Shown: positions 13,514-25,401 of the stretch, in pieces | Layout of the letters: the number at the start of each line of letters is the position of its first letter | Numbering within the stretch: position 1 is the first letter of the stretch | Origin: an uncultured Candidatus Saccharibacteria bacterium | GTDB taxonomy: Bacteria > Patescibacteriota > Saccharimonadia > Saccharimonadales > JACDBH01 | DNA: 64,000 bases | NCBI GenBank assembly: GCA_964431415.1 | Contig: CAYSJS010000006.1 | Coordinates: 252 to 64,251, forward strand | Direction of reading: 5' to 3' | Notes under the pieces: generated by a model | Told to the model about the DNA's origin: nothing | The model's input: only the letters and a program-made list of their open reading frames with translations | Databases searched by the model: none | Made by a program: the position numbers and the translations under genes

Positions 13514-14713
13514 TTAGACCATAGCATATAAACTTTTATCTTTGAGTCGTCGATGAATGTAGATGAGCACAACGAATGCAGCTGCTGCTAATAGTACAAG
13601 CGCCAAGGAGTAGGAATGCATACGTTGGTATGTAAAACCTAATATCAGTGGCGGCAAGAATCCGCCAAAGCCACCAGCAGCACCCACGATACCAGTAACG
13701 CTACCCATGACTTCTGGCTTTGCAAGCTTACCAACCATTGCAAATACAGCCCCATTAGCACAGCCAAGTACGAAGGCTAAAGTTAGATATGCGATGGTTG
13801 TCTGTGGCTCGAGGGTTGGCTGGAAGGCAACAAATGCCGCAAGAGGAATAATAGTGCAGAGAGTGGCTTGTACGACACGCCTGGCACCAACTTTATCACT
13901 CAGCCACCCACCAACCGGCCGTGCAATCGTGGCGAGTAATACAAATCCAGCCGCCCGTGTAGCAGCGTCAGTAAGCGATAAACCGTAAGAAACCTTAAGT
14001 AGAACAGGCAAATATACACCAAAAGCAACAAAAGCACCGAACGTTACAGCATAAACAGATGATAAATCCCATGTGAGCCGTAGCTTCGAAGCTGCAACTA
14101 TCCGCAAAATAGAAGATCCTTTTGCGGGCTTCCATCCCGGAGCATTTTTACCCCAAAATATAAAAACCATCGCCATAATTATCAATAAACTAGCTACAAT
14201 CATAAATGTCATATCTCTGTCAAAGTTATCTGCAAGTCGTGGTGTAGCAAATCCTGATAATGCCGTTCCGGCATTGCCCATACTGTACACACCTAGAACA
14301 AATCCTCTTCTCTCTGGCGGAAACCATGCGCTAATAAATGGGATACCAATAACAAATGCCGCGCCACCAAAACCGAGAAATATGGCGGCAACCACGATCT
14401 GCCAATAGTCGCCTGCGAACGTTAACGCAAAAACTGGGATTGCGGTCAATAAAGATATAACCGTAAACATCGTTTTACCACCAAATTTATCGGTTAACAT
14501 GCCAAATGCTATACGGCCTAAAGAACCAACGATAACTGGTACGGCCAGAAGTAACGATAGCATTACAGGGGTTAGAGTTAGTTCGCCGGCAAGCTTTGCA
14601 CCAAGGGGGCTCAATAGCGACCAAGCCCAAAAATTAATAATGAGTGCTAGTGTTGCGATACAAAGAGCAAAATATGCACCTTGAACTGACTTTATTTTTT
14701 TTGTTTTTGGCAT
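13514..14713 (-). CDS. MFS transporter, nitrate/nitrite-porter (NarK/NNP)-like
   Basis: 12 TM pattern; MFS motif A FGMLTDKFGGKT; Gly-rich NNP-like boxes SMGNAGTALSG and GIVGAAGGFGGFLPP. Start trimmed to MPKTKK (ATG at 14713) so that it does not overlap the upstream gene. Confidence 0.65.
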   Translation of the reverse strand: MPKTKKIKSVQGAYFALCIATLALIINFWAWSLLSPLGAKLAGELTLTPVMLSLLLAVPVIVGSLGRIAFGMLTDKFGGKTMFTVISLLTAIPVFALTFAGDYWQIVVAAIFLGFGGAAFVIGIPFISAWFPPERRGFVLGVYSMGNAGTALSGFATPRLADNFDRDMTFMIVASLLIIMAMVFIFWGKNAPGWKPAKGSSILRIVAASKLRLTWDLSSVYAVTFGAFVAFGVYLPVLLKVSYGLSLTDAATRAAGFVLLATIARPVGGWLSDKVGARRVVQATLCTIIPLAAFVAFQPTLEPQTTIAYLTLAFVLGCANGAVFAMVGKLAKPEVMGSVTGIVGAAGGFGGFLPPLILGFTYQRMHSYSLALVLLAAAAFVVLIYIHRRLKDKSLYAMV

Positions 14714-14717
14714 ATCA

Positions 14718-16184
14718 TTATATTGCTGCTTCCCAGTCAAAGAACACGGTGTCCTCACGGTAACCTCCACGTCCTTGACCAAAGTTTTCAAAACTCTCGA
14801 CAAACTCAATCGATTTTATATATTTTGCCATTTTATAGCCGTATTTCTTTTCACATCGCAAGCGAAGTGGTGCACCATACTCGATAGGTAGTGTTTTGCC
14901 GTTCATCTCATATGCAAGAATTGTCTGTTTATCATACATATCGCTGACACGTAATCCTGAATAATATGCCTGACCCTTGTCGTCGATATCGTAACAATGA
15001 AACAGCACATACTTTGCATTCTTCTTCGGCTTACAAATCTCCATAACATCGCTCATAGGCAAACCACCCCACTCAGCGACTGCAGTCCATCCCTGAATGC
15101 AATTATGCTTAGTGATTTGGTCTTGTTTACGTAAATCTTTAATATCTTGAAGTGACATTTCGATGGGATTATCGACTAGTCCGTAAACACTTAATATCCA
15201 ATCTTTGAAATGATTGGCTTTGAGTTTTTCATATTCTTCAGATTTTGGAGGATAGCCATTGACTCTAAAGAACGGTGAAATGTCTTTTTTTGTGTAGTGC
15301 TGATTAGACTTCATTCTTCCGAACAATAGACGCACCACAGGCGTATAAAACTTCGTGAGGATTCGTCGTAAGCGTACTTGATCGCCAAGTGTGAAAAATG
15401 AAACCCAAATATTAAAGGCAACTAGCAAAATCAGCGCCATCAAGAATATTGTGAGCGCCAGGGCAAAATCTACATCTGTGTTGCCTAGTGTTATACGTTT
15501 TACGCTATCGTAGAAGTGGAAACCAAGCGCCATTGTTACGTGCACGAGTATGAATAGCGAGAACAGAACCATCGCAATAAAGTGCAAACTCCTCGCAACC
15601 TGACGACGACCGCCAAATAGCTTGAGAAATCCTGGGTGTTTTGCTACCAGTGCTGGGGATAGCGCTAAACCAGTAATAATTGCTAACGGCGCCAGTATGA
15701 AAACCACACCTGCATAAGTTAGTTGCTGCAGGGCGTTATATGTCGCACCCTCTGAAGGCACGTTTAGCGTCAAATATTGGTACATGGTATCAATTGCGCG
15801 CGAGAAAACACCAATGTCAGTAGGGATCAAACGCTGCCATTGTCCGCTGAAGAACAAAAAGCTCATGTAAATTAAGCCCGTTATTACCCAGATGATAGCT
15901 ACTGTGAAGTGCCAATGTCGTGCAGAACCCAAGTTATGGGTACCGCCAGGTAATGCAAGCTTACCTGGTTCTTCTGCTTCATCTAGAGATGTCCAAAGCT
16001 TATCCTTGGGCATAATTTTCTTACCAAAACGTAACCAGTGATTGTCGTCTTTGGTATCATCGGTCCAGTACAGTTTAGGGTGATCAAAAAGTATTTGTAT
16101 ACCGCTCCGAATAAGCAAGACGAGGCAGAATAGATTAATCAAATGTAGAATTATTATAAATATTGGCAGATGTAGCGTTTCCAT
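14718..16184 (-). CDS. Fusion of a cytochrome-b-like membrane domain with a molybdopterin-binding oxidoreductase domain (sulfite-oxidase/MsrP family)
   Basis: The N-terminal 280 aa have 5-6 TM helices with conserved His residues. The C-terminus ITKHNCIQGWTAVAEWGGLPMSDVM...YEMNGKTLPIEYGAPLRLRCEKKYGYKMAKYIKSIEF matches the Mo-pterin oxidoreductase domain. Confidence 0.7.
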   Translation of the reverse strand: METLHLPIFIIILHLINLFCLVLLIRSGIQILFDHPKLYWTDDTKDDNHWLRFGKKIMPKDKLWTSLDEAEEPGKLALPGGTHNLGSARHWHFTVAIIWVITGLIYMSFLFFSGQWQRLIPTDIGVFSRAIDTMYQYLTLNVPSEGATYNALQQLTYAGVVFILAPLAIITGLALSPALVAKHPGFLKLFGGRRQVARSLHFIAMVLFSLFILVHVTMALGFHFYDSVKRITLGNTDVDFALALTIFLMALILLVAFNIWVSFFTLGDQVRLRRILTKFYTPVVRLLFGRMKSNQHYTKKDISPFFRVNGYPPKSEEYEKLKANHFKDWILSVYGLVDNPIEMSLQDIKDLRKQDQITKHNCIQGWTAVAEWGGLPMSDVMEICKPKKNAKYVLFHCYDIDDKGQAYYSGLRVSDMYDKQTILAYEMNGKTLPIEYGAPLRLRCEKKYGYKMAKYIKSIEFVESFENFGQGRGGYREDTVFFDWEAAI

Positions 16185-16269
16185 ATATATAAATATACCG
16201 CTTATCTATTATTATTGATAACACTACACAAATTAACAGATGTAAGCTAGTATGAAGCGAGCCTAAAAT

Positions 16270-16312
16270 CAGGTGGTAGAATCACTTGGTTCGAATCTGG
16301 TTGCCGGAGCCA
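16270..16312 (+). pseudogene. tRNA-like remnant (D-loop-like and T-arm-like segments, acceptor 3' strand plus CCA, no anticodon arm)
   Basis: TCAGGTGGTAGAATCACTTGGTTCGAATCTGGTTGCCGGAGCCA. There is no matching 5' acceptor strand upstream, and it runs directly into trailer-module copy 2. Confidence 0.45.
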
Positions 16313-16468
16313 GACCAAGCAGAGAAACTCGTAGACTCAGTTCTACGACCAAGAATTACTTCTCTCCTTAGTCTTACGAATAAGATTTTCTCAAAAAGAA
16401 GATTGAAATGTTGGAACCGTCAGAAATGGCGGTTCTTTCATTTTACCCCTGTTGTTTGGTTCGAACCT
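16304..16468 (+). repeat. Copy 2 of the roughly 170-bp tRNA-trailer module
   Basis: See copy 1. Includes a terminator hairpin whose differences from copy 1 preserve pairing. Confidence 0.8.
16413..16444 (+). terminator. Rho-independent terminator (copy 2 of the trailer module)
   Basis: GAACCGTCA-GAAA-TGGCGGTTC followed by TTTCATTTT. Relative to copy 1, one pair changes C:G to A:T (both sides changed) and one changes C:G to T:G. Confidence 0.65.
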
Positions 16469-16548
16469 TGTCCTTCATTTGCCTTAGCAACAAGTAGCCA
16501 AAAACAGACCTGTTTCCATGATAGTAAATTGCAAACTATAATATATTC

Positions 16549-17499
16549 ATGAATTCTTACCAAATTCACTCGATCCTTGAGTCACCCGATGCCTGGCTTT
16601 TTAGTGCTACGACCTCACCAAAGATTTGCAAAGAACTCGAATTTGTTGATCCAAAAGAGCATGGAAAAACACGACATCTTGTAAGTTACGAATGCGAAGC
16701 GGAAAACTTGAATGGGGCGTGGAAAAGCTTCTATAAAGTTGTCACTGAATTTCTTGATGCGGCAGTATTTTATACAACCAGCTATATTTCATTTCTTGAT
16801 TGGAACCACGTAGTTATTAATACCACCCAGAATGTTTCATTAATCTCACTTTATGAGAGGACCTTAGGAACCTCCCTAGATTTTTATAGCGAAGAACGAA
16901 CCGATAGTGTGCAAAATATCCGAGATTTCGCCCAAAAAGATATCCGTCTCGCAAACTTTTTACATTGTTATCGCATGGCGGTTCTAGTTGACTCACCAGA
17001 AACGTACGATGCATATGAAAAGTACTTAATTCTTGCGTGTGAGGCACTTGCCGGAGAGATCAAAGACGTAGACGGTAATGTTAAGTACGACAGAAAACGG
17101 CTTCAAAGCATTCTTGGGAAAGAGCTACACAAAAAGTTCTTCAGTCATGTTGATGGCACATCGGGTAAAACTGTAAGGAATGCGCATTTTCATCTTGGTA
17201 AAGTAATGGTGACGGAGGGTAAGCCACGTAAAGTAATTGAGTTGGTTAATCAGCTTAGGCAGTTTATTGCCAGTGAGTACGGTATAACTGATTTACCTAT
17301 ACTCAGGATTGAGAATTCGCCCACTAGAGGCATGCATCGAGACGATGGTGGCATTGTAGTTATTAGAGGTCAGTACGACAATCCTCAAATACTCATGGAA
17401 AACTGTGAGCCCAATAAAGTATTTGATGATTTGATAGACAAGAAAGATTACGAAATACTATCAGGACCTGAGGCCAGCTCTGCTGTAAATTCTATGTAG
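16549..17499 (+). CDS. Hypothetical protein (316 aa) with an RNxxxH (Rx4H, HEPN-like) motif
   Basis: Long ORF in the AT-rich island. GKTVRNAHFHLG contains Rx4H. No other motif recognised. Its 3' end overlaps the convergent recombinase gene by 8 nt. Confidence 0.5.
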   Translation: MNSYQIHSILESPDAWLFSATTSPKICKELEFVDPKEHGKTRHLVSYECEAENLNGAWKSFYKVVTEFLDAAVFYTTSYISFLDWNHVVINTTQNVSLISLYERTLGTSLDFYSEERTDSVQNIRDFAQKDIRLANFLHCYRMAVLVDSPETYDAYEKYLILACEALAGEIKDVDGNVKYDRKRLQSILGKELHKKFFSHVDGTSGKTVRNAHFHLGKVMVTEGKPRKVIELVNQLRQFIASEYGITDLPILRIENSPTRGMHRDDGGIVVIRGQYDNPQILMENCEPNKVFDDLIDKKDYEILSGPEASSAVNSM

Positions 17500-18799
17500 C
17501 CTTTCTGAACCGTAATACACCTTTCTTTATCTCCATTGTCGTCTCAAATCCTTCCGCCAGAGCACCCTTCTCAAATTCCGTTCCGCTACTCAGCACGTAT
17601 CTTGAATATTCTACTAACGGTACGCTTAAATTTACCTCAACTTTATAGTGGTTTAGCAATGTTTTCGTTACATAGTAATGCTTGTCGACCTTAGCTTGTA
17701 GCTTATTGGTGATTTTAATCTTCTTATAATTAGCTTCGATGAAGGTCTGAAGCAGGTCGCAAAGATTGTTTTCATTAATATACTTTTCTTTACAATTTGG
17801 ATCTTTACGCCTTGTGCAGTTGTAGTAGACGAATCGTTTTACGTCTCCTTTTTTCAATGTCTTAAACTTCTCCTGTGCGGTAATATCTGCCCCGCATTGT
17901 CCGCATTTCAGTAATCCTCGGAATGCGAATGCTTTCGATCCCCAGATGCCTTTGTTAACGCCGCGAGTTTGCTGCACAAGATCGTATAACTCTTTAGAAA
18001 TGAGCGGTTTATGAGCCCCGTCATACCAAGGAGCATCAGGGGCTTGCGGATATTGAAACTTTCCGTAGTAGAACGGGGTCGTCAATATTACAAGTACTTG
18101 GCTCACACTTACTTGCTTACCGGATCTGTTAGTTAGACCTTGTTCGTCTAACCACGCCTTTATTCTTCGACCGCTCCATCGCTCATAGCCAGCTTTATGA
18201 AATGCTTCTCGTACTAGGTCGGCACGCTCAGGGTCAAGAACGATATCGTTGATGCCGCCTAATGCTCGATTCATATAGCCGAGTGGGGCAACGCCTGGAC
18301 GCCAACCCATTTCACATTTTGTCCTAATACCACGTTTTACATTGATACTCTTATTGTCATTCTCGAGTTTTGCTTGCGAGCACAATATCATCAGTAAGAA
18401 TTTTTCATTTGGGTTATTCGTGAAGGTTTGCGAATAAGTTCTTATGTGCAGTAATTTACCTTGATCCATGAGATCAACGACTGCTCCTAAGTCCCCCGCA
18501 TTTCTGCTTAGTCTATCGGGCGCCCATGTGAGAATAGCGTTATATTCTTCACTAGCTAAACCTTTTAGAAGTTTGTTATATACCGGGCGCTTGCCAGAGT
18601 CTTTCGCAGAGTGGCTCTCTTGTAATTCACAGACTACGTTAAGACCTTCATTCTCCGCAAGTGAACGCATCTCGGCCAGTTGCGAGTCGATGCTCATCGC
18701 TTGACGTTCGTCTGATTCACTCGATTTTCTAGCATACAGGCAGTACTTGAGTTGGATTTCTTTTTCCATCAAGGACAAAGGTACCGCAATATTGGGCAA
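17492..18799 (-). CDS. Large serine recombinase (resolvase catalytic domain, recombinase domain, zinc ribbon)
   Basis: YCLYARKSSESDERQAMSIDSQ (catalytic Ser region), LTWAPDRLSRN, central recombinase domain, and CGQCGADITAQEK...YYNCTRRKDPNC zinc ribbon. The real start may be the internal MEKEIQ. Confidence 0.85.
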   Translation of the reverse strand: MPNIAVPLSLMEKEIQLKYCLYARKSSESDERQAMSIDSQLAEMRSLAENEGLNVVCELQESHSAKDSGKRPVYNKLLKGLASEEYNAILTWAPDRLSRNAGDLGAVVDLMDQGKLLHIRTYSQTFTNNPNEKFLLMILCSQAKLENDNKSINVKRGIRTKCEMGWRPGVAPLGYMNRALGGINDIVLDPERADLVREAFHKAGYERWSGRRIKAWLDEQGLTNRSGKQVSVSQVLVILTTPFYYGKFQYPQAPDAPWYDGAHKPLISKELYDLVQQTRGVNKGIWGSKAFAFRGLLKCGQCGADITAQEKFKTLKKGDVKRFVYYNCTRRKDPNCKEKYINENNLCDLLQTFIEANYKKIKITNKLQAKVDKHYYVTKTLLNHYKVEVNLSVPLVEYSRYVLSSGTEFEKGALAEGFETTMEIKKGVLRFRKAT

Positions 18800-18844
18800 A
18801 GTCTAGCTGTAATTACACCTATAAAACAGATATAATGGTCAGTA

Positions 18845-21800
18845 ATGGAAGAGTCAGATAATATACGAGCCATTCATGCAACATTCTCTTACGGAGTAGT
18901 TTACGTTTATTCAATCCCGGGCGATCAACATAAGGGTCGTTTGAAAATCGGTGGTGCGACTCTGACCGCAGAAAAACCTACACAGCAATCTATTGATGCA
19001 GCTGCTCACGAACGCATAAAGCAGCAAACAAAAACTGCAGACGTGCCGTATAAGCTTGAGCACGCCGAGCTGACAGTTAGCAATAATGGGACTTACTTCT
19101 CTGATTACGATGTCCACGAAATACTAAAAAGATCAGGTTACGCCCGTAAATCAGAAAACACTAAAAACGCACACTCAGAATGGTTTGAAGTTAGTTTAGA
19201 AACAGCGAAGAGTGCGATCCAAGCCGCAAAAGAAGGACGAGAGGCTCTCACTACTTTAGAAAAAACTGGAACTAACAATTTTGAGTTTCCATTCCGCCCA
19301 AATCAACGTGATGCCATAGACAAAACAACCAAAGCTATTAAGCAGCACCGCAAACATTTTCTTTGGAATGCAAAGATGCGCTTCGGAAAAACATCTGCTG
19401 CTATGCAGGTAGCCAAAGAGAATGATATGAAAAAGATTCTCATCGTTACCCACCGCCCAAGTGTTAGTGCAGACTGGTATGATGATTTTAATAGGGTTTT
19501 TGCAGGTACAAACTATGAGTATGCTTCAAAAACGAAAGGGCAACAAATAAGCACTCTCGCAAGAGGCGACAAACCCTTCGTTTACTTTGCGTCACTACAA
19601 GATTTACGTCTTTCCAAACGAGTGGTAGAGGACGAAGCTGCCCAATCTCATGCCAGAGGATTTGATAAAAATGATGAGGTATTTGATACAACCTGGGACA
19701 TGCTCATTGTCGACGAGGCACATGAAGGTACTCAAAGTAACTTGGGTGATGCTACCTTTGCAAAAATCCCCGTTAATTTCACCCTACAACTTTCAGGCAC
19801 TCCATTTAACATCCTGCACAAACACGAGGAAAATGAGATTTATACCTGGGACTACGTCATGGAGCAAGAAGAAAAGCTGCACTGGGATGAACGTCATCAA
19901 GGTGTGCCTAACCCGTATGTAGAACTTCCTGCTCTTAGTATGTTTACCTATGACATAGACAAGTTCGCTAGTCATATCGGTAGCTTGGGCGAAAACTTTC
20001 ATGACGCGCTAGATGGTGCATTTAAGTTCCACGAGTTCTTCCGCGTACACAGGGACGATGACGGAAACGAGATTGCTGAATTTGTGCATGAGCAAATGGT
20101 CAAAAAGTTTCTTGATTTGTTAGTAGATAGCTCTATTCATACCAAGTTTCCGTATTCATCAGAAGAATATCGTAATCACAATAAACACTCACTCTGGCTG
20201 TTACCTAATCGTGTCAAAGTTATTGAAGCCATGGAAAAGCTACTTAAAGATCACTGGATTTTCGGATCCAACCAATTTGGGATAGTAAATATTTCAGGTA
20301 GCAATCGTGATGATGAAGAAGACAAAGACGCAAAAGACCGAGTAACGAAAGCTATCAAAAATCATGACTATACCATTACGCTAACGGGGCAAAGATTGAC
20401 TACTGGCGCATCTGTCCCGGAGTGGACGGCCGTATTCATGCTTTCAGACACAAGTAGCGCAACTACCTACTTGCAAACAGCATTCCGTTGCCAGACGCCA
20501 GCAAAGATTGATGGCAAACTTAAAACCCAGGGTTATGTATTTGACTTTGCACCAGACCGTACACTACGACTCGTCGCAGAGGCCATTGAGCTTAATCACA
20601 AATCTGGCAAAACTAATTCACCAGAACAAAAAGAAGCGATGAAACAATTTCTAAACTTCTGCCCAATCTTGGCTGCTGAAGGTGGCACGATGAAGCCATA
20701 CGATGTAGGCACCATGTTAGTACAGCTCAAAAAAGCCATTATTGAACGTGTCAGCAGGAATGGTTTTGACGACCCTAAACTGTACAATGACGAGTTACTT
20801 CAATTAGACGAACTTGCCCTCGAAAAGTTCAATGAGCTTAAGAAAATTGTTGGCTCTGCATCTGGTGAGCGAATAAACGAGATACCCGTTAATGACTTAG
20901 GTATGGATGAACTCGAGACCGCTAAAGCCGAGGAAGCCGAGCGTAAGAAGAAAAAGAAAGAACCGCTTACTCCAGAGCAGGAAGAAGCACTTAGAAGACT
21001 AAAAGAAGCTCGCGAGCAAAAACAAAGCGCCATAAGTATACTCCGAGCTGTCAGTATACGAATGCCGATGATGGTATACGGTGCTGACGTGTCTGTACGT
21101 GAAGATATAACCTTGGAAAAATTCATTGATCTAGTCGATGAAACGTCTTGGCAAGAATTTATGCCCGAAGGTCTGACTAAAGAAAAGTTCAGAGGTTTTA
21201 TCAAATACTATGATGAAGAAGTGTTTAGTGGAGTCGCTCATAGCATACGAGCAAAAGCATATGATTATGACGAGCTTCTTCCGGCTGAACGTATTCAGGC
21301 AATTGCTAACGTGTTTGCGACATTTAAAAACCCAGACAAGGAAACAGTTCTCACTCCTTGGAATGTCGTCAATCTACAGCTGTCATCAACGTTAGGTGGT
21401 AATGATTTCAGATCGCTTGTTAAAGATAAACCCGAGTGGAAAACAGCCGGTCAAGCAACACAAATATGGTCTCAGGAAGATGCCAAAATTTTAGAAATTA
21501 ACTCAAAATCAGGACTCTATCCATTGCTTGCCGCTTATAACATTTACTCCCGGCAGCTTATCAAACACAAAAAGCCAGAGGATAAAATCCATAGGCATTT
21601 GTGGAACGAGGTTTTGTCAAAAAACATTTTTGTCATCTGTAAAACCCCTATGGCCAAGACTATTACCGAACGAACTCTTGCTGGCTATTCAAAAGTAAGC
21701 ATGAATATTGTCTATATAGAGGACTTAATAGAGAAACTACGTCAAGAAGACACATATAAGAGTTATACTCTAAGAGATGAGTTGCGTGAAAAATTCAAAG

Positions 21801-22798
21801 TTGAGGGTAGCGATATGAAGTTTTCTGCAGTCGTAGGAAATCCTCCCTACCAGGTTAATACTGACACTAATTTTTCGGTGCCGGTATATCATTTGTTTTT
21901 CAACGCTGCAAAAGATCTGGACCCAGATTATGTAAGCCTAATTCACCCTGCTAGATTCCTTTTCAACGCCGGGGCAACGCCAAAAGAGTGGAATGCTCAA
22001 ATGCTCAACGACAAACATCTGTCGGTTCCTTTATACGAGCCAGACTCTCAGAAAATATTTTCAGGAGTAGATATTAAAGGTGGTGTTTGTATAACATTCT
22101 GGGATAAGAACAATCCGAAAGGCGGTCTTGGCGGAACTTTTATAGCTTTCAAGGAATTACGCGCCATTTTGGCAAAAACTAAAACAGGTGGATTTGATCA
22201 AATTGTCGGATCGAGGGGCGGAACACGTGCTAAACGATGGCTAGATAGTTTTGATAGATACCGCTCCTATTTTCCTTCAAGTGTATTCACAACTAACGCA
22301 GACTTATTTTCCGAATCTGCAGACGACCAACATCAAATAAAGCTTGTGGGGCTGGTTAATAACAAACGCATTGAACGTTTTGTAAGCAAAGATCTCGTGG
22401 ATGATAAAGACTTACTGAAATGGAAGGTCTTTATTCCTAAGTCGAATGGTACTGGCGCAATTGGTGAAATATTAAGTACACCCCTTACGGGGGAACCCCT
22501 TACGGGGTGTACTGAGTCTTTCATCCAAATTGGCTCGTTTGACAATAAGGATGAAGCAATGAACTGTATGAACTATATCAAGACTAAGTTTTGTCGAGCT
22601 ATGCTGGGTACACTTAAGGTTACACAAGATAATCCAAAAAGTACCTGGAAGAATGTACCTCTACAAGATTTTACCAATGCTTCTGATATAAACTGGTCGG
22701 AATCAATTGAAAATATCGACAAACAGCTATACGCAAAATACGGACTTAATGAAGAAGAGGTGGCCTTCATCGAAACTCGTGTCAAAGCCATGGAGTAG
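18845..22798 (+). CDS. 1317-aa fusion: GIY-YIG-like (T5orf172-type) N-terminal domain, SF2/ResIII helicase-type ATPase, Eco57I-type N6-adenine methyltransferase domain and TaqI-C-like specificity region
   Basis: aa 15-130: GVVYVYSIPGDQHKGRLKIGGAT...HSEWFEV. Helicase motifs AKMRFGKTSAAM (I), LIVDEAHEG (II), LQLSGTPF (III), YLQTAFRCQT (VI-like). Lys/Glu coiled linker. MTase motif I-like KILEINSKSGLY and motif IV FSAVVGNPPYQ. C-terminus ends ...IDKQLYAKYGLNEEEVAFIE, typical of Eco57I/TaqI-C families. Confidence 0.75.
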   Translation: MEESDNIRAIHATFSYGVVYVYSIPGDQHKGRLKIGGATLTAEKPTQQSIDAAAHERIKQQTKTADVPYKLEHAELTVSNNGTYFSDYDVHEILKRSGYARKSENTKNAHSEWFEVSLETAKSAIQAAKEGREALTTLEKTGTNNFEFPFRPNQRDAIDKTTKAIKQHRKHFLWNAKMRFGKTSAAMQVAKENDMKKILIVTHRPSVSADWYDDFNRVFAGTNYEYASKTKGQQISTLARGDKPFVYFASLQDLRLSKRVVEDEAAQSHARGFDKNDEVFDTTWDMLIVDEAHEGTQSNLGDATFAKIPVNFTLQLSGTPFNILHKHEENEIYTWDYVMEQEEKLHWDERHQGVPNPYVELPALSMFTYDIDKFASHIGSLGENFHDALDGAFKFHEFFRVHRDDDGNEIAEFVHEQMVKKFLDLLVDSSIHTKFPYSSEEYRNHNKHSLWLLPNRVKVIEAMEKLLKDHWIFGSNQFGIVNISGSNRDDEEDKDAKDRVTKAIKNHDYTITLTGQRLTTGASVPEWTAVFMLSDTSSATTYLQTAFRCQTPAKIDGKLKTQGYVFDFAPDRTLRLVAEAIELNHKSGKTNSPEQKEAMKQFLNFCPILAAEGGTMKPYDVGTMLVQLKKAIIERVSRNGFDDPKLYNDELLQLDELALEKFNELKKIVGSASGERINEIPVNDLGMDELETAKAEEAERKKKKKEPLTPEQEEALRRLKEAREQKQSAISILRAVSIRMPMMVYGADVSVREDITLEKFIDLVDETSWQEFMPEGLTKEKFRGFIKYYDEEVFSGVAHSIRAKAYDYDELLPAERIQAIANVFATFKNPDKETVLTPWNVVNLQLSSTLGGNDFRSLVKDKPEWKTAGQATQIWSQEDAKILEINSKSGLYPLLAAYNIYSRQLIKHKKPEDKIHRHLWNEVLSKNIFVICKTPMAKTITERTLAGYSKVSMNIVYIEDLIEKLRQEDTYKSYTLRDELREKFKVEGSDMKFSAVVGNPPYQVNTDTNFSVPVYHLFFNAAKDLDPDYVSLIHPARFLFNAGATPKEWNAQMLNDKHLSVPLYEPDSQKIFSGVDIKGGVCITFWDKNNPKGGLGGTFIAFKELRAILAKTKTGGFDQIVGSRGGTRAKRWLDSFDRYRSYFPSSVFTTNADLFSESADDQHQIKLVGLVNNKRIERFVSKDLVDDKDLLKWKVFIPKSNGTGAIGEILSTPLTGEPLTGCTESFIQIGSFDNKDEAMNCMNYIKTKFCRAMLGTLKVTQDNPKSTWKNVPLQDFTNASDINWSESIENIDKQLYAKYGLNEEEVAFIETRVKAME

Positions 22799-22801
22799 CC
22801 C

Positions 22802-23737
22802 ATGGTACCACGTACAGACATCGATATCCTAGAAAATAATCTTCGTCGCAAGGGCGACTTATTAGACATTTTGCTAGTAGATCGCACAACTGGAAAGAAT
22901 CTCCTGTGGGGCACGGATTCTTATTCTGGTAACGGCAAAGTATTTGGCTCAAAAAGCCGCATGCAGCCGGACTTAGTAACAGGCCTTTATGGTAAGCTCA
23001 TCCAGCCTCGCGCAGCCAAGAGTCGCGATGAGCAGCTTCGCCGTACGAAAGAAAAAGCTGAAGTATTCACACCACTCCGCATAGTACATGAAATTAATAG
23101 TACTGTTGATAGAGCTGCTGGCGCAAAACTTGTTAGCGGACACACATGGCAAGACTATGTGTCAGAACTAAAACTAGAAATTGCGTGTGGTGAAGCACCG
23201 TTTATTGTAAGTCGCTATAACCCTGTTGCACATGGTGTTATTATCAAGCTTGAAAACCGCGTAGGATTTTTAGACCAAAAGTTACGTGTTGTATCACACT
23301 ATTGCGATAAACCTAAAGATTGGCTGAAGTGGGCGAAGATTGCTTTTCAGAGTTCTTATGGATACGAATGGCAGGGCGACAACTTACTAATAGCTCGTGA
23401 AAATCTGTTATACACACTCATTGACTACTATAAGGATAAGTTCGGTCGCCGACCATCGCTATCAATTCAACAAGAGTTTGCAGAGATTATAAGTTGGAAT
23501 ATCTGGCAAATGGACGGCGTTAAATACGTCGTACCGATGAGCTGTAAGCACATAAACAGAGTTATACCTGGCGAACTTACGCTATTCGGCGAAACCCCTG
23601 ACATAGTCGAAAAAGATGAATGCGAGGGTTGTAAGTTTAACCGTCCCAAAAAGCATAATGGCCGTTATGCTCGTGTTATGGATTGGAAAACTGGTAAGTC
23701 GATAAAGTTTGTTGAGCTAGTTTCGCAGCTCGTTTGA
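22802..23737 (+). CDS. 311-aa methyltransferase-fold protein with motifs X and I but no recognisable motif IV (NPPY)
   Basis: KEKAEVFTPLRIVHEIN (motif X-like xxFTP), LEIACGEAPFIV (motif I-like ACGxxxF), SYGYEWQGDNLLIARENL (motif II/III-like), IISWNIWQMDG, a C-terminal Cys pair (CEGC), and no [DNS]PP[YFW]. Starts 4 nt after the 1317-aa gene. Confidence 0.55.
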   Translation: MVPRTDIDILENNLRRKGDLLDILLVDRTTGKNLLWGTDSYSGNGKVFGSKSRMQPDLVTGLYGKLIQPRAAKSRDEQLRRTKEKAEVFTPLRIVHEINSTVDRAAGAKLVSGHTWQDYVSELKLEIACGEAPFIVSRYNPVAHGVIIKLENRVGFLDQKLRVVSHYCDKPKDWLKWAKIAFQSSYGYEWQGDNLLIARENLLYTLIDYYKDKFGRRPSLSIQQEFAEIISWNIWQMDGVKYVVPMSCKHINRVIPGELTLFGETPDIVEKDECEGCKFNRPKKHNGRYARVMDWKTGKSIKFVELVSQLV

Positions 23738-23792
23738 GGGTTGGGTTGATCCTGAAAAATGCAATTAGAGCCATTGAAAATGGTGCTGACTT

Positions 23793-24617
23793 TTAATTGC
23801 TCGCAGCAGAATCGGAAACTTTGCATACCAAAATATCGGATGCGGTTTCGCTATCATCAACAACTACTGTGACTCTCTGGCCTACCTTAAGATCCGTTCT
23901 AGATGCGGTGCCTTTTGAACTTTTATACATTGTCCGATTCGTCAGCGTAATCGTCTGGGCGGTATTGTTATTACGATTGATGACGATGCTGCCATCGCCT
24001 ATGCTCGCAATCTCTCCTGTTCCTCTTGTGCCGTTACAAGGATCACCACTCTGAGGCGAGGTGGTCTCTGCGGGGCGAACCACTTGGCCTTTTGGATATA
24101 GGGCGTAAAACGATGCGCTGCACAGAACCAATATTGAAAGAACGGCAATTGCGACATACTTATATTTTTTTCTTTGGATCCAGTCGGCAAAAGCAAGGAA
24201 TGCCCAGTAGCCGGTCATAACACCGAGTGCGTTCAGAGTTACATCGTCGATATCGAATATACCGATGTGCAGTGCTGCTTGCATGACTTCAACACTAAGA
24301 CCGGCGGCTACTGCGACGGCGAAAGCCTTCTTCCATGTGATGTTTTTTAAAATGAGAGGCGCAAGAACGCCAAGCGGAACAAGCAGTGCAATATTGCCGA
24401 GCAGATTAACCCCCGCAATCACTAGTCCCTGATTTCCGAATAGGTAAGGAATGATGGTCGTAAATGGTACAAAGTTGGCTGCCCCGCTATTTGTTCCACC
24501 AATGTTAAACAGTAACTGCCCAACATGAATAGTTGGCAAATCTTTGAAGACCATTACTTTTACAAGCAGAATGCTATATAAAACAAAGAGAACTGCCGGG
24601 TATAAAGTTTTTTTCAT
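23793..24617 (-). CDS. VanZ-like membrane protein with an extracytoplasmic C-terminal domain
   Basis: FVPFTTIIPYL, NLLGNIALLVPLGVL, SVEVMQ, and IFDIDDVTLNALGVMTGY are typical of VanZ family proteins. Confidence 0.65.
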   Translation of the reverse strand: MKKTLYPAVLFVLYSILLVKVMVFKDLPTIHVGQLLFNIGGTNSGAANFVPFTTIIPYLFGNQGLVIAGVNLLGNIALLVPLGVLAPLILKNITWKKAFAVAVAAGLSVEVMQAALHIGIFDIDDVTLNALGVMTGYWAFLAFADWIQRKKYKYVAIAVLSILVLCSASFYALYPKGQVVRPAETTSPQSGDPCNGTRGTGEIASIGDGSIVINRNNNTAQTITLTNRTMYKSSKGTASRTDLKVGQRVTVVVDDSETASDILVCKVSDSAASN

Positions 24618-24769
24618 TTCTAATCGTAACCAGTCACAAGAACTGTATATAGGAATGCTGAGTTTAAGCTTAAAAAGAAAAGTTTAGAACCGCGGGGACA
24701 ACGCTAGATTTAACTATCACTTTTTGGCCTGATCTATCTTTACTGCAGGTATAACTTCCTCTTCCTCTA

Positions 24770-24794
24770 TCCGCCAGCTGGTTGGAGGCGGAGG
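24770..24794 (+). repeat. tRNA D-arm-like hairpin TCCGCC-AGCTGGTTGGA-GGCGGA (member b of a recurring hairpin family)
   Basis: Shares TCCGCCAGCTGG and GGCGGAGG with 12224-12241. The loop resembles a canonical D-loop. It is followed by GACGCTTGTTAAAAC, which resembles the tRNA-Asn anticodon arm GACGCTGTTAACGTC. Confidence 0.5.
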
Positions 24795-24867
24795 ATGACG
24801 CTTGTTAAAACTTGAGCTAGCCGAGAGTTACCGCGCCTTCTTTTTCGTTATGAGGTAATATAAATCT

Positions 24868-25401
24868 ATGAAATACGTAGTCTTGTTGAGAGGCATCAAT
24901 GTAGGTGGTAATAACAAAGTCGGCATGAAAGACTTGAAGCTTTCCTTGGAAAAAGCACGTTTTGCCAATGTTTACACGTATATAAACTCTGGCAACGTAA
25001 TACTATCGAGTAGCTTAGCAACGGGTGAGGTGAACGATTTGGTTGAAGTAACGATCAAACATGCATTTGGCTTTGATGTTTACGTGTTGGCTATACCAAG
25101 CGCCGAATTTCAGCGTATCGCAAAAGAGCTGCCTAAAACCTGGACTAACGATACTGAAATGAGATGCGATTGCTTGTTCTTATGGAAAGATGTGGACTCC
25201 CCTGACGTGTTAGACAGTTTGACGATCAAACCAGATATAGACCGAGTGAAGTATGTTCCCGGTGCTATATTTTGGTCTATAAACCGTGAGAATGTGACCC
25301 GAAGCGGCCTAGCCAAAATTATCGGCACGCCGCTATATAAAAAGGCGACCATACGAAATTGCAATACGGTGCGAAAGCTAACGGCCTTACTGAATTCATA
25401 G
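24868..25401 (+). CDS. DUF1697 family protein
   Basis: MKYVVLLRGINVGGNNKVGMKDLK is the hallmark N-terminus of DUF1697. Confidence 0.75.
   Translation: MKYVVLLRGINVGGNNKVGMKDLKLSLEKARFANVYTYINSGNVILSSSLATGEVNDLVEVTIKHAFGFDVYVLAIPSAEFQRIAKELPKTWTNDTEMRCDCLFLWKDVDSPDVLDSLTIKPDIDRVKYVPGAIFWSINRENVTRSGLAKIIGTPLYKKATIRNCNTVRKLTALLNS

Follow-up and report, generated by a model that had tools for sequence, protein, structure and literature searches.

A free-standing methyltransferase front half is the almost universal partner of a nuclease-helicase-methylase family resembling the Type ISP restriction enzymes

Among the described restriction-modification (R-M) systems, those closest to the locus considered here are the Type ISP enzymes LlaGI and LlaBIII (PDB 5FFJ, 4XQK), single-polypeptide enzymes with an Mrr nuclease (PMC3553950, PMC4666363), in which, as in the large protein of our locus, nuclease, SF2 helicase, coupler, gamma-class N6-adenine methyltransferase (MTase), and target-recognition domain (TRD) lie on one chain. 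The first of those papers (PMC3553950) mentions, without going further, a "wider cohort" of uncharacterised relatives that have GIY-YIG nucleases and helicase subunits. Full-text searches of the literature gave no description of a half-MTase subunit; the restriction-enzyme family reported here is widespread and apparently uncharacterised. The fold of the methylases M.TaqI and CamA (PDB 2IBS, 7LT5) is reproduced in whole—motifs X through IV and beyond, plus a TaqI-like TRD—by what we term below the small-type front half together with the back half; but whereas those two enzymes are monomeric, the present family cuts the fold between motifs III and IV into modules that occur either separate or reattached, and the small protein of our locus lacks beta4-7, the NPPY motif, and the TRD and has a Cys3His insertion. 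With the Type I R-M systems (HsdM, HsdS, HsdR) the family has in common a construction from several subunits, which allows a methylase core to exist without the motor-nuclease subunit, as well as an N-terminal helical domain, in the small-type proteins, that resembles the one of HsdM. Unlike those systems, however, it contains no separate S subunit—the specificity domain travelling with the catalytic MTase half—and an MTase front half is part of its motor subunit. A naturally split enzyme assembled from two polypeptides is known in M.AquI, which enzyme is nevertheless a C5-cytosine MTase and thus of another class, is split at another point, and is not known to possess a second, alternative front half or a helicase-nuclease partner.

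The locus lies in a stretch of 64,000 nucleotides (hereafter, the window) of a contig from an uncultured Candidatus Saccharibacteria bacterium (CAYSJS010000006.1, assembly GCA_964431415.1), and its features are collected in Table 1. The large gene (P0121) ends in a TAG stop at 22796-22798, after which come 3 nt (ccc) and the ATG of the small gene (P0001) at 22802, a GGAG being present 6 nt 5' of that ATG; from this layout of the junction translational coupling of the two genes is probable. The first-pass annotation had held that the pair was not one gene split by a frameshift, and with that we agree.

Table 1. Features of the R-M pair and its surroundings, in coordinates of the window (aa, residues of the protein named)
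Feature	Position	Strand	Description
316-aa protein without family match	16549-17499		in the lower-G+C block
Large serine recombinase	17492-18799	-	adjoins the R-M pair
Large-subunit gene P0121, 1317 aa	18845..22798	+	T5orf172 nuclease, SF2 helicase, mid-type front half, back half with TRD
Mid-type front half, P0121 aa ~825-990	21317..21814	+	motif X, motif I, beta2, beta3; AF2 model
Back half, P0121 aa 991-1317	21815..22795	+	MKF..VVGNPPYQ, NPPY 999-1002, beta4-7 plus TaqI-like TRD
Junction P0121/P0001	22792..22804	+	GGAG, TAG stop, 3-nt spacer, ATG
Small-subunit gene P0001, 311 aa	22802..23737	+	free-standing gamma-class N6A-MTase front half; PADLOC PDLC03390 match
N-terminal helical domain of P0001, aa 1-85	22802..23056	+	counterpart of the HsdM/CamA N-terminal region
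Motif X of P0001, AEVFTP, aa 86-91	23057..23074	+	E87 83/85, T90 83/85, P91 81/85
Motif I of P0001, EIACGEAPF, aa 126-134	23177..23203	+	beta1 and cofactor loop; P0142-model strand 127-130
Motif II of P0001, YGYEWQGD, aa 186-193	23357..23380	+	beta2 and acidic residue; P0142-model strand 186-190
Motif III of P0001, WNIWQMDG, aa 232-239	23495..23518	+	beta3 and Asp; P0142-model strand 235-237
Cys3His cluster of P0001 (C248, C274, C277, H285)	23543..23656	+	zinc-ribbon-like hairpins, P0142 model 252-305
VanZ-like membrane protein with DUF5666 tail	23793-24617	-	convergent, 3' of P0001

The front half of an MTase is present intact in the small protein. It has motifs X, I, II, and III of the gamma-class N6-adenine MTases, all near-invariant across its family, and each of the sequences that the first-pass annotation had assigned to the 311-aa reading frame—AEVFTP, EIACGEAPF, the motif II/III-like stretch YGYEWQGDNLLIARENLL (aa 186-203), and WNIWQMDG—was located in the translation, as were the four residues C248/C274/C277/H285 of the small Cys-containing C-terminal region reported there. 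Within aa 1-85 the positions conserved in the family are L24, L25, D27, W36, Y41, P69, R70, and K73. A regular-expression search of the protein for [DNS]PP[YFW] found nothing, in keeping with the earlier statement and hence with no catalytic motif IV; beta4-7 are missing as well, the protein ending at the very point where its fused relatives start MKF..GNPPYQ, and the TRD, likewise missing, sits in the back half of P0121 (~1075-1317).

Searches with the small protein of Pfam, NCBIfam, and PHROGs gave no match, nor did searches of the PDB sequences either with the single query or with an 85-sequence profile, and the ESM Atlas returned family names only; the PADLOC profile PDLC03390 ("MTase_II"), in turn, matched it at an E-value of 3.8e-95, with the best stretch running from residues 113-308 to positions 135-324 of the 327 in that profile. 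The family has more than 7,790 homologues of near-equal length (~310 aa), many of them 67-90% identical, which set forms 1,568 clusters at 50% identity; homologues of ~310 aa from CPR bacteria, Gammaproteobacteria, and Bacteroidota are 57-72% identical. The PGAP name for these relatives is "restriction endonuclease subunit M," with some on Enterococcus and Lactiplantibacillus plasmids labelled "restriction endonuclease." When we counted conservation over 85 diverse homologues, C129, E131, G192, D193, N233, Q236, and M237 were invariant, E126, G130, P133, and D238 were each present in 84, and position 189 was E or D in all 85; the three acidic cofactor-contact positions (E126, E/D189, D238) are thus kept in 84-85 of the 85 members. 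The Cys cluster, for its part, is kept in ~50-52 of the same 85 (~60%) and is missing in ~40%.

In certain relatives of 600-720 aa the P0001-like module is followed without a break by "MKFxxVxGNPPYQ" and a back half, and the alignment indicates that these fused proteins contain the whole module, the Cys region included, before that sequence. Of the best 150 representatives 44 exceed 450 aa, and 35 of those 44 carry NPP[YF], which motif sits ~160-225 residues after the invariant motif I. The large protein of the window shares the same junction: its residues 991-1317 match the natural fusion P0142 at residues 324-666 with 42% identity, the homology beginning exactly at MKF. According to the first-pass annotation, full-length homologues continuing into NPPY would have meant that the present copy was simply truncated; such homologues do exist, but we rejected simple truncation because the free ~310-aa form is the commonest one and is conserved.

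As a surrogate for P0001 we folded P0142 (666 aa), whose module is 44% identical to P0001 (alignment A4), with AF2 from a 137-row alignment, and obtained a model with a pLDDT of 95.0 and a pTM of 0.92. Residues 2-650 of that model align to CamA 3-577 (Z 18.9) and residues 87-628 to M.TaqI 21-413 (Z ~13), the motif X of the model matching the start of M.TaqI at residue 21; with MmeI, LlaGI, LlaBIII, DrdV, BrxX, and HsdM the Z-scores were 13.3-18.2 and most of the model was spanned, the HsdM alignment reaching only residue ~437. The N-terminal residues equivalent to aa 1-85 align, in the comparison of models, from CamA residue 3, HsdM residues 6 or 36, and LlaGI residue 785 onward. The P0142 fusion is accordingly predicted to fold as a complete CamA/M.TaqI-like methylase; and the small-type module is, judging from the model, the N-terminal helical domain, motif X, and beta1-3 of a gamma-class N6-adenine MTase. 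The earlier reading of P0001 as an MTase front half thus stood, since the fused module matches M.TaqI from residue 21 onward and CamA along its full length.

In P0121 we found Pfam matches to T5orf172 (17-126, E 6.4e-07), ResIII (148-321), and Eco57I (926-1072), with no Mrr family among them; the N-terminal domain also matches MUG113, the sequence shows Walker A (GKT) and DEAH motifs, a single NPPY starts at residue 999, and PADLOC calls the protein REase_MTase_IIG. An AF2 model of residues 701-1317 (pLDDT 88.8, pTM 0.81) contains a helical coupler, motif X, beta1-3, beta4 with NPPY, and the TRD. Residues 134-580 of this model align to M.TaqI 21-413 (Z 14.6) and residues 115-601 to CamA 5-577 (Z 18.3), so that the region is confidently modelled as a complete MTase with a front half of its own. 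In that mid-type half motif X is ETVLTP (833-838) and motif I is ILEINSKSGLY (882-892), of which the ILE lies in beta1, and the strands are at model residues 182-184, 228-232, and 254-257; K888 and G890 of the cofactor loop are invariant, the motif II position is occupied by Cys-Lys (C932/K933) with no acid, and the motif III Asp is present in just 26 of 45 sequences. Between the small family and the mid-type half no significant homology was obtained (BLASTP E 91; hhalign E 0.26), the best alignment running motif X to motif I. The first-pass annotation had considered P0121 and P0001 to be complementary, the one supplying a catalytic half and the other a SAM-binding half, which description is wrong for the locus in the window, since P0121 models as complete (pLDDT 89) with its own front half.

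The comparison with the Type ISP enzymes can now be specified. The domain scan and the model place helicase, MTase, and TRD on one polypeptide in P0121, as in those enzymes, and the MTase-TRD parts of the P0142 and P0121 models align to LlaGI 780-1569 with Z-scores of 16-18. In contrast, the nuclease at the P0121 N-terminus is T5orf172, GIY-YIG-like, where the Type ISP enzymes have one of the Mrr family; P0121 has no detectable sequence similarity to any chain in the PDB; its back half is a movable cassette; and, whereas a single chain without any accessory subunit makes up the whole of a Type ISP enzyme, the P0121 family carries an extra half-MTase gene that is nearly always present.

The linkage of the two genes was assessed in 80 genome loci holding a small-type gene, ~70 of which were informative. 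In almost all the loci with enough flank a helicase and/or a back half adjoins the small-type gene on the same strand, with the order being large then small in the relatives from CPR bacteria, Gammaproteobacteria, and Bacteroidota, and small then large in those from Firmicutes, Treponema, and Bacteroidales. By an HMM tally of the 80 loci the small, mid, and back-half modules occurred together in 43, small and back half in 20 (the mid-type half there being too divergent for the profile used), small and mid in 3 that were cut at a contig end, and small alone in 14, mostly at contig ends. From the other direction, of 401 genomes sampled evenly across the phylum, 8 contained a member of the large-gene family, all 8 with a small-type partner; the small gene itself occurs in 4 of the 401. 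The small-type gene is therefore an almost universal partner of this nuclease-helicase-methylase family, as the first-pass annotation had surmised for P0001 and its neighbor; and the independent occurrence of the small gene that would have spoken against such a partnership is rare, with 2-3 true orphans among the ~70 informative loci (L020, L027), L024 and L029 retaining remnants of the back half.

A few loci depart from the plain pair. In G269:C1:26089-30913, from one of those 8 genomes, both genes are pseudogenes, the large one interrupted by many stops (TGA, TAG, and TAA) and the small one by two TAA stops, and from their sequences they appear to have decayed together. In a Moraniibacteriota locus (L017, 6991-8978) the two members of the pair stand apart, with acquired genes for a free 218-aa T5orf172/GIY-YIG protein and a Fic/DOC protein of 365 aa between them, and in L006, L018, L021, and L028 an insertion of 1.5-3 kb separates the large gene from the small. 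The orphan at L020 (2052-9903), without a back half or a cognate helicase, comes after a Schlafen/AlbA_2 protein, a PLD-SNF2 helicase (1,120 aa), and a Bro-N protein, and has perhaps been taken up by a different defence system, or is simply an orphan.

The modules of the family are three—the small-type front half, the mid-type front half, and a single back half comprising beta4-7 with NPPY plus the TRD—and they are distributed in different layouts. In type A a fused M protein of 645-680 aa (small-type half plus back half) is directly followed by an R protein of ~1,100-1,145 aa; the mid-type profile matches the C-terminus of all ~30 intact R proteins of this type at E-values of 1e-19 to 1e-24, and those proteins end ~25 aa past motif III, in alignment with the MKF junction. 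In type B, the layout of the window, the large protein (mid-type half plus back half) is accompanied by the free small subunit; type B large proteins on plasmids of lactic-acid bacteria have a short partner of 230-235 aa, which protein PGAP names "N-6 DNA methylase" and which matches the first third of the Pfam families N6_Mtase and MmeI_Mtase. Type C consists of a short small-type protein (189-263 aa) with a fully canonical motif I, FLEPACGTGNFL; an M protein of ~500 aa, in which a mid-type half with DPxxK[ST]G (its motif I, DPACKTG, being near-canonical) and a Cys cluster precede MKFDVIVGNPPYQ; and an R protein of ~830-970 aa that is a nuclease-helicase without a front half. This type was found at L165-L167 and L169 (genomes G141, G007, G292, and G117) and on the phage contigs L172 and L173. 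Finally, L114 has three genes (299, 354, and 1,144 aa), the back half being free-standing there. Every layout for which we checked the three modules has two different front halves and one back half, the last being attached to the small-type half, attached to the mid-type half, or free.

The back half is, moreover, the least constant of the modules: back halves are 24-68% identical to those of neighbours versus 70-80% for the helicase, with the mid- and small-type halves also conserved. A FastTree phylogeny of the back halves, whose type A loci had been chosen by their relatedness to P0142, requires small-type and mid-type attachment to have been exchanged at least 4-5 times, and groups the back half of the window with 24 type A sequences under good support. 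By these sequence comparisons the back half is a movable cassette. Two odd fusions—P0258 (933 aa), in which a small-type half (1 to ~242) is joined to coupler, mid-type half, and back half, and P0230 (1125 aa), in which a small-type half is joined to a ResIII helicase—could be either real rearrangements or assembly chimeras. On a Bifidobacterium longum plasmid (L004, 7932-14747) an IS256 lies between a small-type half of 328 aa and a back half of 383 aa, which pair is followed by an R gene of 1,113 aa; we rejected this arrangement as a natural split, because it looks like a fused M gene of ~711 aa disrupted by the IS256.

Some phages carry only parts of the system. In the Tenacibaculum jumbo phages PTm1 and PTm5 an HTH gene stands between gp277, a back half on its own (344 aa, with MKFDIIVGNPPYQ at its start), and gp279, a small-type half of 335 aa; in PTm1 (locus L170, NC_049340.1, 5564-7996) that intervening gene is the gp278 regulator, and a search of the whole 224,680-bp PTm1 genome gave no match to the helicase, nuclease, or mid-type part of P0121. 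The Fusobacterium phage FNU4 has the fused form alone. By its sequence the gp277-gp279 pair looks like a two-piece orphan methylase; and the retention in PTm1 of exactly a small-type half and a back half argues that these two would probably work as a methylase in trans. Such phage copies also suggest that the same parts are used for phage self-protection.

The best reading of these observations is that a two-gene, ATP-dependent R-M enzyme resembling the Type ISP ones would have in P0001 an obligatory subunit for the binding of SAM. In this scheme P0001 would bind SAM and dock on the back half of P0121 to give a methylation-competent form, while the mid-type half of P0121, having no motif II acid and an invariant Lys in the cofactor loop, would mainly couple the recognition/catalytic cassette to the motor and the nuclease. 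A composite, methylation-competent pairing in trans of P0001 with the P0121 back half—one of the options listed by the first-pass annotation—is the explanation we favour, at about an even chance, and it gains support from the fused relatives and from the phage having only a small-type half and a free back half. Against it must be counted that P0121 is confidently modelled as a complete MTase on its own front half, that a covalently tethered front half should be expected to out-compete a free one, that two of the three layouts join the back half to the mid-type half, which in type C has a near-canonical motif I, that the two types of front half are without significant sequence homology, and that the Cys cluster is missing in so many homologues. 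If, alternatively, the P0121 MTase were self-sufficient, P0001 might be a spare cofactor-binding half serving as a SAM sensor or regulator that allosterically gates translocation or cleavage against methylation, in line with the effector role of SAM in Type I, Type III, and some Type IIG enzymes. That alternative, which we consider possible but doubtful, draws on the complete MTase fold of P0121 701-1317, on the persistence of small-type halves in type C beside a normal-looking ~500-aa MTase, and on the strict conservation of the SAM-contact residues in the small family; but the P0121 front half lacks the motif II acid, and in the fused-M systems, PTm1, and FNU4 the small-type half is the sole front half available to the back half and so must there be the working half of the catalytic site.

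Less probable again is an arrangement in which the three modules form a machine whose two alternative front halves compete for the one back half and, by exchange of domains, switch it between modification and restriction. Paired with the small subunit, which is free and SAM-competent, the back half would be in a methylating, host-protecting state; paired with the helicase-tethered, cofactor-poor front half, it would recognise but not methylate, and would license translocation and cleavage. Though we judge it unlikely, such a switch, if true, would account for the attachment of the back half by evolution to either front half. A purely structural assembly role for P0001 with no SAM involvement—for example in the dimerisation or docking of two large subunits—would be compatible with the need of half-domains for a partner surface and with the resemblance of the N-terminal helical domain to the subunit-contacting regions of HsdM and the coupler, yet is improbable, in that it is precisely the residues contacting the cofactor (E126, G130, E/D189, and D238) that are near-invariant over a diverse set of more than 80 members, which is hard to explain without the binding of a ligand. 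The absence of NPPY from P0001 and the existence of full-length fused relatives might still suggest a functionless, decayed or truncated MTase remnant, which the first-pass annotation had entertained; we rejected that reading, whose chance is very slight, on the strong conservation over thousands of intact ~310-aa homologues, and it is further opposed by the tight coupling to the large gene and by the joint decay of both genes in G269. Least credible of all is that P0001 should be the restriction endonuclease of the system, as the product name in the Enterococcus and Lactiplantibacillus plasmid records would have it, since by fold the homologous module is an MTase front half, shorter relatives match the Pfam N6_Mtase and MmeI_Mtase, a T5orf172 (GIY-YIG-like) nuclease already stands at the N-terminus of P0121, and no nuclease motif was recognised in P0001.

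Were P0001 the obligatory SAM-binding subunit, a second subunit would have been overlooked in a very large branch, with thousands of members, of what are apparently single-chain helicase-type restriction enzymes, which branch extends over CPR bacteria, gut Firmicutes and Bacteroidota, plasmids of dairy lactic-acid bacteria, and phages, and in which annotation pipelines record the small subunit as "hypothetical," "restriction endonuclease," or "subunit M." A Rossmann-fold methylase divided after motif III and before motif IV, having two alternative front halves and a cassette for catalysis plus specificity that can be swapped, would be an unusual way of building and diversifying an R-M system; the arrangement bears on the balance between modification and restriction, and could account for the failed expression of such enzymes from the large gene alone.

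As to the surroundings, the 14000-25000 block of the window that holds the R-M pair has a G+C content of 0.38-0.44, with 0.40-0.44 where the pair itself lies, versus 0.51-0.54 at 8-11 kb and, with its serine recombinase, is probably a mobile island; the low G+C, the recombinase, and the patchy distribution of the small gene over the sampled phylum (4/401) are all consistent with a mobile defence island. The VanZ-like gene that converges on P0001 looks unrelated to the R-M pair.
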